Below, one piece after another: positions 2,849 to 36,108 of a stretch of 64,000 bases of DNA. The stretch is from contig CAZSPB010000003.1 in the NCBI GenBank assembly GCA_964608725.1, positions 55,645 to 119,644 of the forward strand, given 5' to 3'. This stretch comes from an uncultured archaeon (GTDB lineage: Archaea; Aenigmatarchaeota; Aenigmatarchaeia; Aenigmatarchaeales; Aenigmatarchaeaceae). The notes under the pieces are model-generated. The model had not been told where the DNA came from, searched no databases, and saw only the letters and a program-made list of their open reading frames with translations. Within the stretch, counting starts at the first letter, position 1; each line of letters opens with the position of its first letter. The position numbers were made by a program, and so were the translations under genes.

Positions 2849-5248
2849 TTATATTCTCACACTTATTTTTATAGGATATCCTTCAACTTCTAAATCTCCT
2901 TCTCCAAATTCTAAATTCTTTACTTTCATAGTACCTTTTATATCATCAAAAAATCTTTCTAGTCTCTTCATTATTACTTCATCACATTTTATAGTAACCT
3001 TTTCCAAAGGTGCATTTAAAGCTAAACCTCTCCTGCTTTTGTACTTCCTAAGGAAAGATATTATCGCAACTACAATATCTCCTATCTCTTCTGCATCTTT
3101 GTCTATAAACTTTTCATTCACTTTTGGCCATTTTGAAACATGAATTGAAATATCTTTTTCAACGTTTCTAAAGTAAATTTGCCACATTTCTTCTGTTATG
3201 TAAGGTATTATAGGGGCTAACATTTTATTAACATTTAAAATTAGATTATATAAAGTGAAAAGAGCAGCATCCTTATTCTTATTTTCATACAACCTATATT
3301 TTATGATTTCAATATAATTGTCAGCAACATCATGCCATAAGAATTTGTGTAAAACTTCAAATGCTCTTGAAAATTGAAAATTTTCATAATAATAAGTTAC
3401 TTCTTTAATGACTTTTTGAAGTTTCGTTAATATCCAATAGTCTATTAAAGTTGGTTCAGCTTCTTTAAAATCTTTCAAGTGCATTCTAGAAAATCTAAAA
3501 ACATTCCACAACTTCGTTAAAAATCTGAATGTGAATTCCATATCTTTCCAAGAAAATGGGACATCATTTCCATAAGCCCCCATCATGATAAGGCCAGCTC
3601 TTATCACATCAGCCCCATGTTTTGATAAGACATCATCAGGCATAACAACATTTCCTAAACTTTTATGCATTTCTCTCCCATCAGGCCCAAGAATCATCCC
3701 ATTTATTAATATTTTTTTCCATGGTTTCATTTTCGTTTCAAGAAAACATCTTAAAATAGTGTAATAGGCCCAAGTCCTTATAATATCATGACCTTGCTGT
3801 CTCAAATCATTTGGATAAAGCTTTTTAAACAATTCATCATCTTTCCAATAACCAGAAATTACTAATGGTGTTATTGAAGAATCTATCCAACCATCACACA
3901 CATCACTTTCTCCAATTATTTTACCACCGCAATCACATTTTTTCAATTTGTACTCCTCTATAGCTGGGTTAACTGGTAAATCTTTTTCTTCTGGTAAATA
4001 TATTTTTCCACAAGATTCACAGTACCAAAAAGGAATTGGGGTTCCATAAACTCTTTGTCTTGAAAATATCCAATCCCAATCCATAGAATCAATCCAATTT
4101 AAAAGTCTCTTTTTCATGTATTCAGGATACCACTCTATATTCTCAGCTATTTCTTTTATTTCTTTTGAAAATTTCACAGCATCTATTGCCCATTGTTTTT
4201 TAGTTAAAAATTCTATTGGATTTAAACAAGTTGATCTTTCAGTGTGACAAAGAACATTATGCTTAAATTTTTCTTCTTTCTCTAGAAAACCAAGAATTCC
4301 AAGTTCTTCGGCTATCTTTATTCTAGCATCTTCTATTTTCATTCCTTTAAACTTTCCTGCATTTTCATTTAACCTACCATCTTCTGTCACAATGTTTATA
4401 GCTGGTAGGCCATATTTCTTTTGCCATTTTATATCAGACTCATCCCCATAAGTACACAAGTAAACAGCACCGCTTCCAAATTTCATATCAACTTCAGGGT
4501 TAGTAAGAATTGGAACTTCTCTATTAAATATAGGAAGTTTGGCCTTTTTGTTAACGAATTTTTTATATCTTTCATCTTTAGGATTCACAAAAATTGCAAC
4601 ACAAGCTGGAAGCATTTCTGGTCTTGTTGTTGCAATAGTTATAAAGCTTTCTTCTACAGGAAACTTTATGTAATAAAGAATTCCTTCTCTCTCAATGTAA
4701 CCAACCTCTGCTTTTGCAAGTGTTGTTTTACATTTTGTGCACCACATAACCGGATGCTCAACTCTTTTTATCAAACCCCTATGATACAAATTTAACAAAG
4801 TTTTTTGAACGAATGCTTTGTATTCTTTACTATCACTCCTATATTCAAAATCCCAATCAGCAGAATACCCCATTTCTATCATTTTATTTTTCATCTTCTT
4901 TATGCAATCTTCTGTCCAAATTTTACATAATTCTAAAAACTTCTCTTTATCCTCCTTATTCACATTAAAATTCTTTTCAACTTGTAGTTCAGTTGGCAAA
5001 CCATGGCAATCCCATCCTTGAGGGAGCAAAACGTTAAAGCCTTGCATCCTTTTAAATCTTGCTATGACATCATTCCAAGTCCACCATAAAACATGGCCCA
5101 TATGAGGTACTCCAGAAGTAAATGGAGGGGGAGTATCTATGATAAAAGTAGGTTTATCACTTTTTCTATTAAATTTGAATATTTTATTCTCTTCCCAAAA
5201 CTTTCTTATCCTAGGCTCCACTTCTTTAGGATTATAAACTTTTTGCAT
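2849..5248 (-). CDS. valS: Valyl-tRNA synthetase (class I)
   Basis: 'PPPFTSGVPHMGH' HIGH-type motif and a 'KMHKSLGN' KMSKS motif; a 799-aa length fits archaeal ValRS. Confidence 0.6.
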   Translation of the reverse strand: MQKVYNPKEVEPRIRKFWEENKIFKFNRKSDKPTFIIDTPPPFTSGVPHMGHVLWWTWNDVIARFKRMQGFNVLLPQGWDCHGLPTELQVEKNFNVNKEDKEKFLELCKIWTEDCIKKMKNKMIEMGYSADWDFEYRSDSKEYKAFVQKTLLNLYHRGLIKRVEHPVMWCTKCKTTLAKAEVGYIEREGILYYIKFPVEESFITIATTRPEMLPACVAIFVNPKDERYKKFVNKKAKLPIFNREVPILTNPEVDMKFGSGAVYLCTYGDESDIKWQKKYGLPAINIVTEDGRLNENAGKFKGMKIEDARIKIAEELGILGFLEKEEKFKHNVLCHTERSTCLNPIEFLTKKQWAIDAVKFSKEIKEIAENIEWYPEYMKKRLLNWIDSMDWDWIFSRQRVYGTPIPFWYCESCGKIYLPEEKDLPVNPAIEEYKLKKCDCGGKIIGESDVCDGWIDSSITPLVISGYWKDDELFKKLYPNDLRQQGHDIIRTWAYYTILRCFLETKMKPWKKILINGMILGPDGREMHKSLGNVVMPDDVLSKHGADVIRAGLIMMGAYGNDVPFSWKDMEFTFRFLTKLWNVFRFSRMHLKDFKEAEPTLIDYWILTKLQKVIKEVTYYYENFQFSRAFEVLHKFLWHDVADNYIEIIKYRLYENKNKDAALFTLYNLILNVNKMLAPIIPYITEEMWQIYFRNVEKDISIHVSKWPKVNEKFIDKDAEEIGDIVVAIISFLRKYKSRRGLALNAPLEKVTIKCDEVIMKRLERFFDDIKGTMKVKNLEFGEGDLEVEGYPIKISVRI

Positions 5249-5281
5249 GAGAGAATTTTATTCTTTCTAATAAATAAATTT

Positions 5282-5848
5282 TTAAAGAATGTTAAAGCTT
5301 TTTAAAAATCTCCTTATTTTCTTAAAATCTTTCTCCATTTTTTCTTTAATTTTTGGAAATCTCATTGCAGCAGAAGGATGAAAAGTTGGAATAAAAATGA
5401 TACCGTTTTTCTTAATAATTTTTCCATGTAATTTTGATATTTTTGCTTTTTCATCTATCAAAGCCTTTAAAGCAGTATTTCCCAAAAGGACAATTACTTT
5501 AGGCTTAATTATCTCAATTTGTTTTTTTGTATGAAGCATACCATGCCTTATTTCTTTTATGTTTGGAGCTCTTTTTCCAGGATAATACTTTACAGGAGAT
5601 GTTATGAAAACTTTTTCTCTTTTTATTCCTATTGAATTAAGCATTTTTGTTAAGAATTTCCCCGCTCTCCCAATAAAAGGCCTTCCAACTTTGCTTTCTT
5701 CTATTCCAGGTGCTTCACCAATGAACATAACTTTAGCATTTGGATCGCCTTCTCCTGGAACAGGCAATCCATATTTATTTTTCCTACATTCTTTACATTT
5801 CTTTATTTCATCAGCTATTTTTTCTAAAGCTCTCTTCTTATCAGACAT
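5282..5848 (-). CDS. udg: Uracil-DNA glycosylase, family 4
   Basis: 'PGEGDPNAKVMFIGEAPG' family-4 UDG motif, with Cys residues upstream that fit Fe-S cluster ligands. Confidence 0.7.
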   Translation of the reverse strand: MSDKKRALEKIADEIKKCKECRKNKYGLPVPGEGDPNAKVMFIGEAPGIEESKVGRPFIGRAGKFLTKMLNSIGIKREKVFITSPVKYYPGKRAPNIKEIRHGMLHTKKQIEIIKPKVIVLLGNTALKALIDEKAKISKLHGKIIKKNGIIFIPTFHPSAAMRFPKIKEKMEKDFKKIRRFLKSFNIL

Positions 5849-7608: not shown

Positions 7609-7692
7609 GGGCCGGTAGCTTAGCCTGGTGGAGCGCTCGGCTGATATTAAATAGAAACCGAGAGGTCGCAGGTTCAAATCCTGCCCGGCCCA
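7609..7692 (+). tRNA. Intron-containing tRNA, probably tRNA-Ile (GAU) with a ~10-nt intron after position 37
   Basis: 84 nt. Acceptor GGGCCGG/CCGGCCC, D-arm GCUU..GAGC, anticodon stem CUCGG/CCGAG enclosing 17 nt (CUGAUA + 10 nt + A), T-arm GCAGG-UUCAAAU-CCUGC. Confidence 0.6.
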
Positions 7693-7722
7693 CTATTTTT
7701 CAAAAAGTTTATCCTTATTAAA

Positions 7723-17921: not shown

Positions 17922-18014
17922 TGGGCCCGGCCGGATTTGAACCGACGTTACCAGCACCCCATTCCAGCAGTTAAACTGTAGCTGGTGTCCTAGACCAAGC
18001 TGAACGACGGGCCC
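17922..18014 (-). tRNA. Intron-containing tRNA (93 nt; ~18-20-nt intron in the anticodon region; anticodon unresolved)
   Basis: Reverse complement gives acceptor GGGCCCG/CGGGCCC, D-arm GUUC..GGAC, anticodon stem CCAGC...GCUGG enclosing 25 nt, T-arm GUCGG-UUCAAAU-CCGGC, discriminator A. Confidence 0.6.
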
Positions 18015-24425: not shown

Positions 24426-24586
24426 TGCGGAGGGCAGGATTTGAACCTGCGAAGGGACTAACCCACAGGATTTCTTTCATCTTTTGATCAAAACTTAAGA
24501 GCCAAGTCTTAAGTATCGCACAGCTGTCCTGCGCCTTTGCTCATGTTCGCTATGCGAACATATTGACCTGGCTTGGCTACCTCCGC
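24426..24586 (-). tRNA. Type-II-like tRNA (Leu/Ser class) with ~85-100 nt of intervening sequence; exact intron positions unresolved
   Basis: Reverse complement: acceptor GCGGAGG/CCUCCGC, discriminator A, D-arm 'UAGCCAAGCCAGGUCAA', T-arm GCAGG-UUCAAAU-CCUGC, and a variable-arm-like hairpin GGG-UUAGU-CCC. Confidence 0.5.
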
Positions 24587-34683: not shown

Positions 34684-35647
34684 AAATTTTTCTTGCTTTT
34701 AAAAAATAGTCCAATTTCCTAGCTTCTGAACATCTCAAAACTTCATGAGAAGGGTGATACACTTGAAACAAATTTATTACAGGAAATCTTGTTAACAACT
34801 TTTTAAATTTTTGAAAAGCATAAGAAACGTTAGAAAGAGGATCTAAACCAAGTATATAAAGCAATGAAATCTCAAAATTATATTTTTGTAAGCGATGAAA
34901 AAATTTTATAATTTTTTCTATATGAAAGGGGGAAAAACTTTTTCTTTTATCAAGAAATTTATCTTGTTTTAAAGTTTCTAGTGTAAAATAATACGAAAAT
35001 TTTGGAATAATAGCTGAAATTTTCTTTAAACTTTGTTCACTCTTTAGTTGAGCTCCTATATATTTTATTTCTCCTGAAAAATTAAGCAGTGTAGCAGCAT
35101 TATGAATTGCAATTAAATGTTCAACTAGCTCCTTTTCATTTTTGAATAATCCTGTATTAAGGCAAATTTCTTCTAACTCTGAAAACTTTACTTTAGCAAA
35201 AGTTTCAATTTCTTCAAACCAATTTAAAAGCTCTTCAAATTTTAAAATTTTTCTATGAGCCCTTGGTGTTTGATAACGAGTACCACAAAATTTACATTTT
35301 CCTATGCAATTACTTCTTTCATTAGTATTTAACACAAGAACTCTTTTCTTTTTCCTAAAGTAACATAATTCGGCTACATCATTTTCCATTTTTTTTAAAT
35401 TACCTATTACTTCTCCATTTAAATGAACTTTTGAATTAGCTAAGTAAAATGGGGTGTGTGTAGTATTTAGGCATATCATAAGATAAAATGTTTTGTTTGT
35501 GAGTTTTGGAGAAAAATATGATCTTATTCTAAAAAACTGTAAAGGACTTTTGGCACCCCATGTATTTAGTGCAATTAAACATATATCAGTAGTAGGAATC
35601 TCATAATCTTGTGAATAAGTATAAATACTCTTTACATTTCTTAACAT
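34553..35647 (-). CDS. Radical SAM enzyme
   Basis: 'CIGKCKFCG' CxxxCxxC motif about 110 aa from the N-terminus. Confidence 0.5.
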   Translation of the reverse strand: MLRNVKSIYTYSQDYEIPTTDICLIALNTWGAKSPLQFFRIRSYFSPKLTNKTFYLMICLNTTHTPFYLANSKVHLNGEVIGNLKKMENDVAELCYFRKKKRVLVLNTNERSNCIGKCKFCGTRYQTPRAHRKILKFEELLNWFEEIETFAKVKFSELEEICLNTGLFKNEKELVEHLIAIHNAATLLNFSGEIKYIGAQLKSEQSLKKISAIIPKFSYYFTLETLKQDKFLDKRKSFSPFHIEKIIKFFHRLQKYNFEISLLYILGLDPLSNVSYAFQKFKKLLTRFPVINLFQVYHPSHEVLRCSEARKLDYFLKARKIFEEIFEDTNLRPRLWENYRGLWYTRFKGEKIGGQYLQTFIRGY

Positions 35648-35707
35648 ATTAAAATTAAAAATTACAGATTTTTATTTTTTTCTACTTAGAAAGAGTAAAT
35701 AATTAAG

Positions 35708-35898
35708 CGCCGAGGGCAGGATTTGAACCTGCGAGCCCCAAAGGGGCACCAGATAACTTACATCATTCCGCCTATCACTCCACATTTGCCGCCTTTCAGA
35801 GTCAAGCCATCATTTCATCTGTCTCAAGTATCGCTATCATCTCGAAATCAAAACTTGAGATGATTCTGGCGCGTTAAACCTGGCTCCGCCACCTCGGC
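35708..35898 (-). tRNA. Type-II tRNA (Ser/Leu class) with ~105 nt of intervening sequence in the anticodon region
   Basis: Reverse complement: acceptor GCCGAGG/CCUCGGC, Ser-like D-arm 'UGGCGGAGCCAGGUUUAACGC', anticodon-stem candidates CCAGA...UCUGG, variable-arm hairpin CCCC-UUU-GGGG, T-arm GCAGG-UUCAAAU-CCUGC. Confidence 0.55.
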
Positions 35899-35948
35899 GT
35901 AATTTAAATTAATATCTAAGAATTTTTAAATTTTACAGCACTTTATAA

Positions 35949-36095
35949 TCATTTCTTTGCTAGCTTTTTTCTCTTAATGTACTGCCAAATCTTCTTAGTC
36001 ATTTGAGCTGGAGATAAAGGTTTCTTTCCAACTATCTTAGCTAAATTTTCATCTGGTATTATCACATAACCTCCAAAAGGTTTTCTTTTGGCCAT
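35949..36095 (-). CDS. Small basic protein (48 aa)
   Basis: Unlisted small ORF 'MAKRKPFGGYVIIPDENLAKIVGKKPLSPAQMTKKIWQYIKRKKLAKK'; the 'KKIWQYIK' stretch weakly resembles a SWIB-like helix. Confidence 0.25.
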   Translation of the reverse strand: MAKRKPFGGYVIIPDENLAKIVGKKPLSPAQMTKKIWQYIKRKKLAKK

Positions 36096-36108
36096 TTTCT
36101 CACTTTTC

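Follow-up and report, generated by a model that had tools for sequence, protein, structure and literature searches.

On the minus strand of the 64,000-nucleotide (nt) stretch of archaeal DNA analysed here (contig CAZSPB010000003.1, positions 55,645 to 119,644; hereafter the window) lies a disrupted tRNA gene of 191 nt. A preliminary description of the DNA had characterized it as a class II gene of the Ser or Leu type with one intervening sequence, of about 105-112 nt, between the strands CCAGA and UCUGG. The class of the gene and the presence of intervening sequence were borne out by the present analysis; the single insertion was not, and the gene is now assigned with high confidence to tRNA-Ser(UGA) with introns at positions 30/31 and 37/38 (Table 1). 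Taken by itself, the tRNA gene is of a familiar kind, that of disrupted archaeal tRNA genes, among which it is ordinary though extreme. With the evidence from its relatives, it is quite probable that the gene is functional, that its two introns are removed by protein enzymes, and that both of them carry guide units of the box C/D type.

The tRNA-Ser(UGA) gene and its predicted splicing

The motifs named earlier for this gene (D arm, variable-arm hairpin, T arm, CCAGA/UCUGG) are all present on the minus strand. The acceptor stem is GCCGAGG/CCUCGGC followed by a discriminator G, the D arm is GCG...CGC with a D stem of 3 base pairs (bp), the variable region of 16 nt forms the hairpin CCCC-UUU-GGGG, and the T arm is GCAGG-UUCAAAU-CCUGC. 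With RNA position 1 set at window position 35898, CCAGA (RNA 30-34) and UCUGG (RNA 146-150) bracket 111 nt. Every splice configuration that leaves a 7-nt loop between these two strands was enumerated. None of the eight with a single intron yields a Ser or Leu anticodon; the triplets obtained are CAU, CGU or AGU, and in most of these configurations position 37 is not a purine. With two introns, the heptamer CUUGAGA (RNA 71-77, or 71-76 joined to A145) becomes the loop and provides C32, U33, the anticodon UGA, G37 and A38. These two results led to the two-intron model; the valid splice that the preliminary description had looked for, with U33 and a Ser or Leu anticodon, fails for one intron and is obtained with two. 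A scan for bulge-helix-bulge (BHB) motifs over all pairs of cleavage sites was too permissive to settle the splice sites by itself, and for this reason comparative data were used to place them.

The in-silico splicing that had been suggested for determining the anticodon, carried out by removal of RNA 34-69 and 77-144, leaves an 87-nt molecule that is reported by ARAGORN as tRNA-Ser(tga); when intron 1 is removed alone, ARAGORN already reports Ser(tga) with an intron. The spliced molecule folds as a cloverleaf with a z-score of -2.6 and has the 7-bp acceptor stem, 3-bp D stem, long variable arm and UUCAAAU-type T loop of a class II tRNA, and once both introns are removed its anticodon loop of 7 nt contains U33 and a Ser anticodon, with position 37 occupied by a purine. 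The discriminator nucleotide distinguishes tRNA-Ser, with G73, from tRNA-Leu, with A73; G73 follows CCUCGGC in the present gene, and A73 is found in the tRNA-Leu of the window. The exons have a G+C content of 64%, as against 31% for the window.

Table 1. Features of the tRNA-Ser(UGA) gene and its upstream region, in window coordinates
Feature	Coordinates	Strand	Remarks
TATA-like box TTTAAAAA	35923..35930	(-)	-32 to -25 from first tRNA nt; read from sequence
Complete tRNA-Ser(UGA) gene, 191 nt	35708..35898	(-)	three exons and two introns; CCA not encoded
Exon 1, tRNA nt 1-30	35866..35898	(-)	acceptor 5' strand, D arm, G26, anticodon-stem nt 27-30 (CCAG)
Intron 1, 36 nt	35830..35865	(-)	non-canonical position 30/31
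AUCUCAAGU, candidate U34 guide	35853..35861	(-)	lies in intron 1; complementary over 9 nt to spliced tRNA nt 31-39
D'-like box UUGA	35848..35851	(-)	5 nt upstream is the partner of U34
C-like box AUGAUAG	35834..35840	(-)	directly 5' of H' strand, overlaps its first two nt (AG); weak
Micro-exon ACUUGAG, tRNA nt 31-37	35823..35829	(-)	A31, C32, U33, U34-G35-A36, G37
Intron 2, 68 nt	35755..35822	(-)	canonical position 37/38; BHB with H = CUUG/UAAG, bulges AG/A and UU/A
Box C AUGAAAU	35812..35818	(-)	RNA 81-87; degenerate relative to RUGAUGA, UGA kept
Guide g1 GAUGGCUUGACU	35800..35811	(-)	RNA 88-99; the 10 nt beside D' are UGGCUUGACU, invariant in family
Box D' CUGA	35796..35799	(-)	RNA 100-103; consensus
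GGCGG in D'-C' loop	35789..35793	(-)	2-3 nt 5' of C' family-wide
Box C' AUGUGGA	35779..35785	(-)	RNA 114-120; K-loop with D'
Spacer/guide g2 GUGAUAGGCGGA, 12 nt	35767..35778	(-)	RNA 121-132; common to locus L138 only
Box D AUGA	35763..35766	(-)	RNA 133-136; followed by UGU pairing with ACA at intron 5' end
Exon 3, tRNA nt 38-73	35708..35754	(-)	A38, UCUGG anticodon-stem 3' strand, 16-nt variable region, T arm, acceptor 3' strand, G73

Of the two BHB motifs, each examined for two 3-nt bulges and a 4-bp helix, that of intron 2 is canonical. Intron 1 has a relaxed motif, with H = CGCC/AGCG (3 bp and a C.A mismatch) and the bulges AG/A and AU/A, that is perfect in eight homologues; its boundary may shift by 1 nt because A34 = A70 in the RNA numbering. 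The 8-bp hairpin AUCAUCUC/GAGAUGAU (RNA 35-42/56-63; hairpin z-score -2.4), which had been noticed at the outset, is real and constitutes the inner helix, h', of this intron 1 motif.

The gene was missed by ARAGORN run without its intron option and by an Rfam scan at the gathering thresholds, and a permissive Rfam scan detected its T arm only. No Rfam family, C/D or other, matched positions 35500-36100 up to E = 10 beyond that T-arm fragment of the tRNA model. With introns allowed, ARAGORN found the gene and mislabelled it tRNA-Gly. No second tRNA-Ser(UGA) was seen in the window by the ARAGORN and Rfam scans. The gene is placed in an intergenic gap flanked by two minus-strand open reading frames (ORFs), and the TATA-like box upstream of it is plausibly an archaeal TATA box. 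The archaeal content of the window includes signal recognition particle RNA, SecY, S-adenosylmethionine (AdoMet) synthetase, HerA/NurA, TFIIB and aRF1. The nearest named relatives of this AdoMet synthetase are proteins labelled Candidatus Aenigmatarchaeota (75-79% identity), and the host is apparently an Aenigmatarchaeota-like archaeon of the DPANN group. Neither EndA nor RtcB was found among the 20 larger ORFs of the window that were scanned.

Guide-like units in the two introns

Intron 2 is probably the RNA of a box C/D-type ribonucleoprotein (RNP). The order of its elements is that listed in Table 1; both of its spacers, C to D' and C' to D, are 12 nt long, and its terminal stem, which consists of just ACA/UGU, abuts the BHB. 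It has no stable Watson-Crick fold (z-score +0.8), and none is expected of box C/D small RNAs (sRNAs). The C/D-box-like words pointed out in the preliminary description, AAUGAUGG (RNA 85-92) and CUGA (RNA 100-103), are meaningful and fall within this intron, the latter as box D'; the better-looking box C chosen there, AUGAUGG (RNA 86-92), is separated from D' by a mere 7 nt and intrudes on the guide, and the spacing seen across the family favours AUGAAAU in its place.

Related genes were sought in two ways, the loci recovered or searched being designated by L-numbers. When species-representative genomes were scanned with the 3' exon, 69 tRNA-Ser genes were obtained, of which seven (L014, L017, L037, L038, L055, L057 and L067, three of them labelled Aenigmatarchaeota) are long and carry intron blocks common to the window. 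In those seven, CUUGAR joins CCAGA directly and the long intron follows. A scan of metagenomes with the intron motif gave 93 hits. Altogether, 92 genes parse as tRNA-Ser(UGA), comprising 84 of the metagenome hits and eight genes found by the exon-only search, and every one of them has a CUUGAR loop. The remaining metagenome hits are seven that are cut off at contig ends and two apparent chance matches; the latter, L073 and L101, on metagenome contigs of 56% G+C, are the only motif hits without a tRNA frame and appear to be fortuitous matches in coding DNA. The family thus numbers about 100 loci and is found almost only in introns of tRNA-Ser(UGA), apparently of Aenigmatarchaeota-like archaea.

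Conservation within the family is concentrated on the elements of a C/D unit. In 90 of the 92 genes, box C keeps UGA at positions 2-4 and is exactly 12 nt distant from D' (CYGA), on its upstream side, an arrangement that the search pattern did not require. The sequence UGGCUUGACU is invariant, including in all eight genes of the exon-only search, and the two nucleotides of the guide beside box C vary. For the kink-loop (K-loop), 18 of the 19 distinct cores combine a C at position 2 of D' with a G at position 5 of C' (C' = AUGNNGA-G), and 72/75 have, directly behind C', the G that is the pairing partner of guide position N+2. The GGCGG of the D'-C' loop occurs in 8/8 of the exon-only-search genes, though it was also part of the metagenome search pattern. 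We know of no conserved sequence in the D'-C' loop of canonical C/D sRNAs. A second copy of GGCGG was observed inside g2 of the window and of L138, and GGCGG may also pair with exon nt 25-28 (CGCC), an exon strand that likewise forms the H helix of the 30/31 intron.

Two arrangements of the intron were distinguished. Type A has 31 members, the window among them, and the standard order: after a short 5' stem come box C, a 12-nt stretch, D', a loop, C', a spacer (mode 12), D (mostly AUGA) and a 3' stem, the terminal stem of 2-5 nt adjoining the BHB. In type B, of which 55 members were analysed, the intron begins with 6-11 nt that are complementary to the last intron nucleotides together with the 3' strand of the anticodon stem; in 53 of the 55 genes there follows an NNGA box at a distance of exactly 5 nt from the nucleotide that pairs with U39. 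Compensatory change in this helix amounts to 21 doubly changed cells, compared with 6.6 +/- 1.8 in shuffles, and 86% of cells are paired compared with 25-43% in slid registers, in an alignment that was registered on the pairing itself and whose variant rows are probably one clade. The NNGA box is followed by a covarying stem. In 39 of the 45 distinct sequences its end falls exactly 3 nt ahead of the box C GA, as opposed to at most 5/45 for any other bulge size. On these grounds of sequence, type B is a kink-turn (k-turn) in which the D box stands 5' of the C box, a permuted order. The geometry of a k-turn or K-loop is thereby seen across the family, in the 3-nt bulge of type B and in the K-loop covariation. 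As to the boxes, D' has the consensus sequence in the window and C, C' and D are degenerate there; the family as a whole keeps the UGA of C and the NNGA form of D at the frequencies given above.

Many tRNA-Ser(UGA) genes of the family, L014, L055, L057, L070, L074, L078, L092, L153 and others, have additional insertions, which fall where the acceptor stem meets the D arm, within the D or T loop, or in the variable arm. These genes have at least three introns each and extend up to 262 nt among those recovered whole, and several of the insertions are long hairpins.

The 30/31 intron has its own comparative record. An insertion exactly between nt 30 and 31 is present in 14 loci, where otherwise unrelated sequences share an identical BHB register, with 3-nt bulges and a covarying inner helix. 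The H helix is a perfect CGCC/GGCG in 8/14, and its 3' strand is AGCG or AGUG in the group to which the window belongs. Downstream of the insertion, nt 31 covaries with nt 39 as A-U, C-G (L149) and G-C (L126/L154).

Within intron 1 of the window, a guide-like module has the order AUCUCAAGU, UUGA, six nt, GAUGAUAG, such that the fifth nucleotide from UUGA (position N+5) pairs with the wobble nucleotide U34. The minimum-energy fold of the precursor pairs RNA 39-46 with 70-77, and AUGA(U/G/C)AG recurs at the equivalent place in window-like introns. The same module was recognized in a second gene of the window, at 24426-24586 (-), which is a tRNA-Leu(UAA) with three introns (its spliced product is reported by ARAGORN as tRNA-Leu(taa)): one of about 24-29 nt in the D loop, the borders of which are not fixed, one of 13 nt at 30/31 with a perfect H = CGCA/UGCG, and one of 36 nt at 37/38. 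The last of these contains CUCUUAAGUU-UUGA-UCAAAA-GAUGAAAG, with module and spacing as in intron 1 of the tRNA-Ser gene and U34 again at N+5; a change of C to U in its antisense matches the change of G35 to A35 in the loop. The module is also found in the tRNA-Leu(UAA) of L118 and L109, with the boxes UUGA/GAUGAGA and CAGA/AUGAUGA, and in 30/31 introns of the tRNA-Ser genes of L118/L141, L149 and L154, and of L126 with a degenerate box. By a hand count, U34 occupies N+5 in 8/9 distinct Ser/Leu cases.

Several points weigh against a methylation guide in intron 1. Antisense pairing between an intron and the anticodon loop is widespread among pre-tRNAs on structural grounds, the independent sequences behind the module are few, and in the L071/L099 lineage it is off register by 1 nt. 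A loose genome-wide search for the pattern guide-UUGA-GAUGA, over all the DNA analysed, showed no enrichment over shuffled guides, and consequently the case for U34 rests on the tRNA-Ser and tRNA-Leu introns listed here. The chances that intron 1 carries a guide for methylation of U34 are considered to be about even.

Proposed function and alternative readings

To what the compared sequences show, namely how the gene is built, where it is spliced and how the boxes are arranged, together with conservation and covariation, the proposed mechanism adds RNP binding, methylation and an order of events, which we infer to be as follows. The archaeal splicing endonuclease would cut the primary transcript at the two BHBs, at 30/31 to release the 36-nt intron and at 37/38 to release that of 68 nt, and the three exons would be ligated to an 87-nt class II tRNA, its anticodon having been encoded on a micro-exon of 7 nt. 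The 68-nt intron would function as a C/D RNA whose terminal stem also provides the inner helix of the BHB, and it would bind L7Ae, Nop5 and fibrillarin, in the precursor or after excision (most likely). The invariant guide would direct 2'-O-methylation of a conserved RNA; lacking complementarity to the host tRNA, g1 would presumably act in trans. The 36-nt intron would serve as a minimal guide unit, composed of the antisense, UUGA and AUGAUAG, that positions the wobble U34 of its host for methylation. A broader proposal, that the intron family represents a lineage-wide guide RNA modifying another essential RNA in trans, with the D arm of class II tRNA-Leu or 5S rRNA as candidates, and that the numerous tRNA introns of the reduced DPANN genomes concerned are kept as a store of modification guides, is advanced as a tentative and rather doubtful one. 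If true, it would bring together cis guides for U34 and U39 and a trans guide, in both standard and circularly permuted box arrangements.

Guide-target relationships fit U39 in the type B relatives and U34 for intron 1 of the window, and no target was found for g1 or g2. The target predicted for g1 is AGUCA*AGCCA (the asterisk marking the predicted methylated nucleotide), and if g1 is a guide, a AGUCAAGCCA-like site would be expected in some stable RNA of the intron-carrying genomes. The nearest match in the window is the D arm of its tRNA-Leu (AGCCAAGCCA), where N+3 forms a C.A mismatch, as it does in each of the three family genomes with a visible tRNA-Leu. A scan of viral contigs for GTAGTCAAGCCWGGT gave 80 hits, just two of which fall in a tRNA, an archaeal-type tRNA-Leu(CAG). 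These two loci, L198 and L210 (IMG/VR, classed as viral), have the D arm GUAGUCAAGCCAGGUC, a perfect complement of g1 that places A13 at N+5. The D arm of class II tRNA-Leu is accordingly noted as a target for g1 by way of a lead only.

Other candidates were tried and set aside. The segment GGAAGUUAAGCC of helix III of 5S rRNA would pair with g1 with one G.U; it was seen in a single 5S-like gene (L002), and as the chance expectation for such a match is estimated at about 0.25, it does not count as evidence and is kept as a lead only. A site in the RNase P RNA of L051 lies in a stem of variable sequence, and the best 16S site in Haloarcula rRNA, UUAAGUCAGGCAACG, has an A.G mismatch at N+9 within the GCAACGAGCG block, which is presumably universally conserved. 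A literal search of the literature for the sequence returned only primers for the polymerase chain reaction.

Rival readings of the gene itself can be set against the two-intron model. That an intron of about 111 nt is removed in one step from between CCAGA and UCUGG, as first described, is encouraged by the good 5-bp anticodon stem that these strands make; it is hardly credible in view of the enumeration above, in which no single-intron product had a Ser or Leu anticodon, and of the homologues without a 30/31 intron, where the CUUGAR exon is joined to the 5' stem. A different double splicing, with UUCGAGA (Ser-CGA, RNA 53-59) or GUGGAGU/A (Ser-GGA, RNA 116-122) as the loop, would give a formally valid cloverleaf that ARAGORN accepts, the fold being ensured by construction. 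Both heptamers, however, lie inside intron elements (the 3' side of the hairpin and box C'), have no BHB in register and are not conserved in the homologues, in which CUUGAR is universal, so that this reading too can scarcely be entertained. It is likewise very improbable that the gene is a decaying pseudogene or a mobile-element fragment no longer processed to a tRNA. Its degenerate boxes, the imperfect H helix of intron 1 and its escape from standard gene finders would suit such a relic, but every cloverleaf stem is intact, the gene sits between ORFs behind a TATA-like box, its exons are far richer in G+C than the window, the organisation is kept with compensatory changes in L071/L099, L118/L141, L149 and L138, and no other tRNA-Ser(UGA) was seen in the window.

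An explanation of a different order, to which a small likelihood is given, accepts both introns and the tRNA and regards the element in intron 2 not as a methylation guide but as an L7Ae-binding scaffold (k-turn/K-loop), or as an RNA chaperone that keeps the much-interrupted pre-tRNA in a fold competent for splicing or sets the timing of its splicing, with UGGCUUGACU and GGCGG as contact sites for protein or RNA. The lack of a g1 target would be accounted for in this way, as would the conservation of GGCGG in a loop that lacks conserved sequence in canonical C/D sRNAs. Moreover, g1 holds CUUGA, the sequence of the anticodon loop, and may compete for the H' strand (CAAG/UAAG), and the 5' element of type B pairs across the 3' splice junction and would need to be remodelled before the BHB forms. 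On the other hand, the exact 12-nt distance from C to D', an invariance confined to the 10 nt beside D', and the position of U39 at N+5 in 53 of 55 genes are signatures specific to methylation guided for fibrillarin and are not those of a generic scaffold, and in the precedent provided by tRNA-Trp the intron does methylate.

The interpretation of both introns as guide carriers has to contend with further observations that speak against it. Searches of the window outside this gene, of some 1 Mb of related-locus sequence, of a Haloarcula rRNA operon and of one RNase P RNA failed to turn up the predicted g1 site. In the window, which as a type A member lacks the well-supported U39 guide, g2 has no recognizable target; no site complementary to it was found in the window, and it is not conserved beyond L138. 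The boxes of the window are degenerate (AUGAAAU for C, AUGUGGA for C' with GU in place of GA, and AUGA for D), and the covarying rows of type B probably represent few independent events. For intron 1, the H helix in the window has 3 bp and a C.A mismatch, and its formation requires partial melting of the D and anticodon stems. Lastly, neither L7Ae, Nop5 nor fibrillarin was detected among the 20 larger window ORFs that were scanned.

Precedents and other RNA genes

The closest precedent is the intron of archaeal pre-tRNA-Trp, which is itself a box C/D sRNA in Haloferax volcanii and in Pyrococcus (sR50) (Clouet d'Orval 2001 and Singh 2004, as cited in PMC7994747 and PMC11408192) and which guides the formation of Cm34 and Um39 in Euryarchaeota. 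As there, the C/D unit of the present family resides within a 37/38 intron and adjoins the BHB, most members place U39 of the host at N+5 in the manner of Um39, and the second unit of the window places nt 34 at N+5 in the manner of Cm34. The two systems differ in their hosts, tRNA-Trp of Euryarchaeota in the one and tRNA-Ser(UGA) of apparently Aenigmatarchaeota-like DPANN archaea in the other. They differ too in that the conserved D' guide here is not complementary to the host tRNA, that type B has its D box 5' of C across a hairpin as a permuted k-turn, and that the position-34 guide of the window occupies a separate intron at 30/31; the present system is, besides, known from sequence alone.

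A further precedent is the 66-nt intron carried by the elongator tRNA-Met of Nanoarchaeum equitans, proposed to be a C/D box sRNA, in which one box is degenerate and the intron RNA is stable (PMC3491384). It is likewise a long intron of a DPANN archaeon with C and D boxes. Its host tRNA is another one, no sequence relationship was seen, and it is known from a single organism, in contrast to the roughly 100 loci of the family described here, which share an invariant guide. In Pyrococcus, trans-acting C/D sRNAs target nt 34 of tRNA-Leu(UAA), tRNA-Leu(CAA), tRNA-Met and tRNA-Trp (PMC7994747). Guide-directed 2'-O-methylation of the wobble nucleotide, including that of tRNA-Leu(UAA), would be common to both, though only putatively so for the introns of the window; the putative guide here differs in being a one-guide D'/C' unit within the intron of its own target tRNA.

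With regard to the gene as such, multi-intron tRNA genes are familiar from Thermoproteales, Thaumarchaeota and DPANN (Marck and Grosjean 2003; Sugahara 2008; PMC5829648), and the present gene resembles them in having several introns, non-canonical positions and relaxed BHBs that need alternative folding, and in being missed by standard finders. It departs from them in the conserved guide-like cargo of its introns and in a 7-nt micro-exon with the whole anticodon, which is extreme. The literature searched contained intron-borne C/D guides for tRNA-Trp and, tentatively, for tRNA-Met, and none for tRNA-Ser or Aenigmatarchaeota. What would be new here is guide-like intron cargo in another host tRNA and another lineage, its principle being that of tRNA-Trp, together with an invariant and presumably trans-acting guide, a permuted k-turn in most members and, in the window, a putative mini-guide in a separate intron, that at 30/31.

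The analysis restores to view a tRNA-Ser(UGA) gene that is overlooked or wrongly labelled by ARAGORN and Rfam. Tools of this kind leave the tRNA sets of DPANN archaea, whose tRNA genes are disrupted, incomplete by prediction, and such misses are a recognized reason for apparent tRNA gaps in DPANN genomes (PMC5829648). It also suggests a role, as apparent carriers of box C/D guides, for at least some of the unusually numerous tRNA introns in reduced genomes of this kind, which would extend what the literature searched describes for tRNA-Trp and, tentatively, for one tRNA-Met. The family offers a compact natural series for the study of C/D RNP assembly on unusual topologies, and of the order of modification and splicing, as it spans standard and permuted k-turns, single-guide units and guide pairing across a splice junction. 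Its invariant 10-nt guide predicts a conserved methylated site with the target sequence given above.

Other RNA genes were noticed in the course of this work. In the window, a tRNA with an insertion of about 18 nt is located at 17922-18014 (-), where 24 nt of the anticodon loop stay unaligned to the Rfam tRNA model; ARAGORN, run with introns allowed, reports it as tRNA-Pro(ggg), and by eye the intron is at the non-canonical position 32/33. At 7609-7693 (+) there is an 85-nt tRNA that goes undetected by ARAGORN unless the intron option is used, in which case it is called Ser(aga); the loop CUGAUA/UUAAAUAGAA/A suggests instead a tRNA-Ile(GAU) with a canonical intron of 10 nt. Among the other loci, the region 3460-3610 (+) of L002, a Candidatus Hodarchaeota metagenome-assembled genome (JBHLKN010000001.1), resembles 5S rRNA with its halves swapped (profile positions 49-106 before 8-53). 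It has the complementary flanks AACGCCUGCU and ACAGGCGUUG, lies just downstream of an intron-containing tRNA and may be a circularly permuted 5S gene. In L051, from an uncultured member of Nitrososphaeria, the archaeal RNase P RNA gene at 4985-5282 (-) is positioned directly downstream of the 3' end of 23S rRNA, the two Rfam matches (RNase P RNA and 23S rRNA) being about 44 nt apart.

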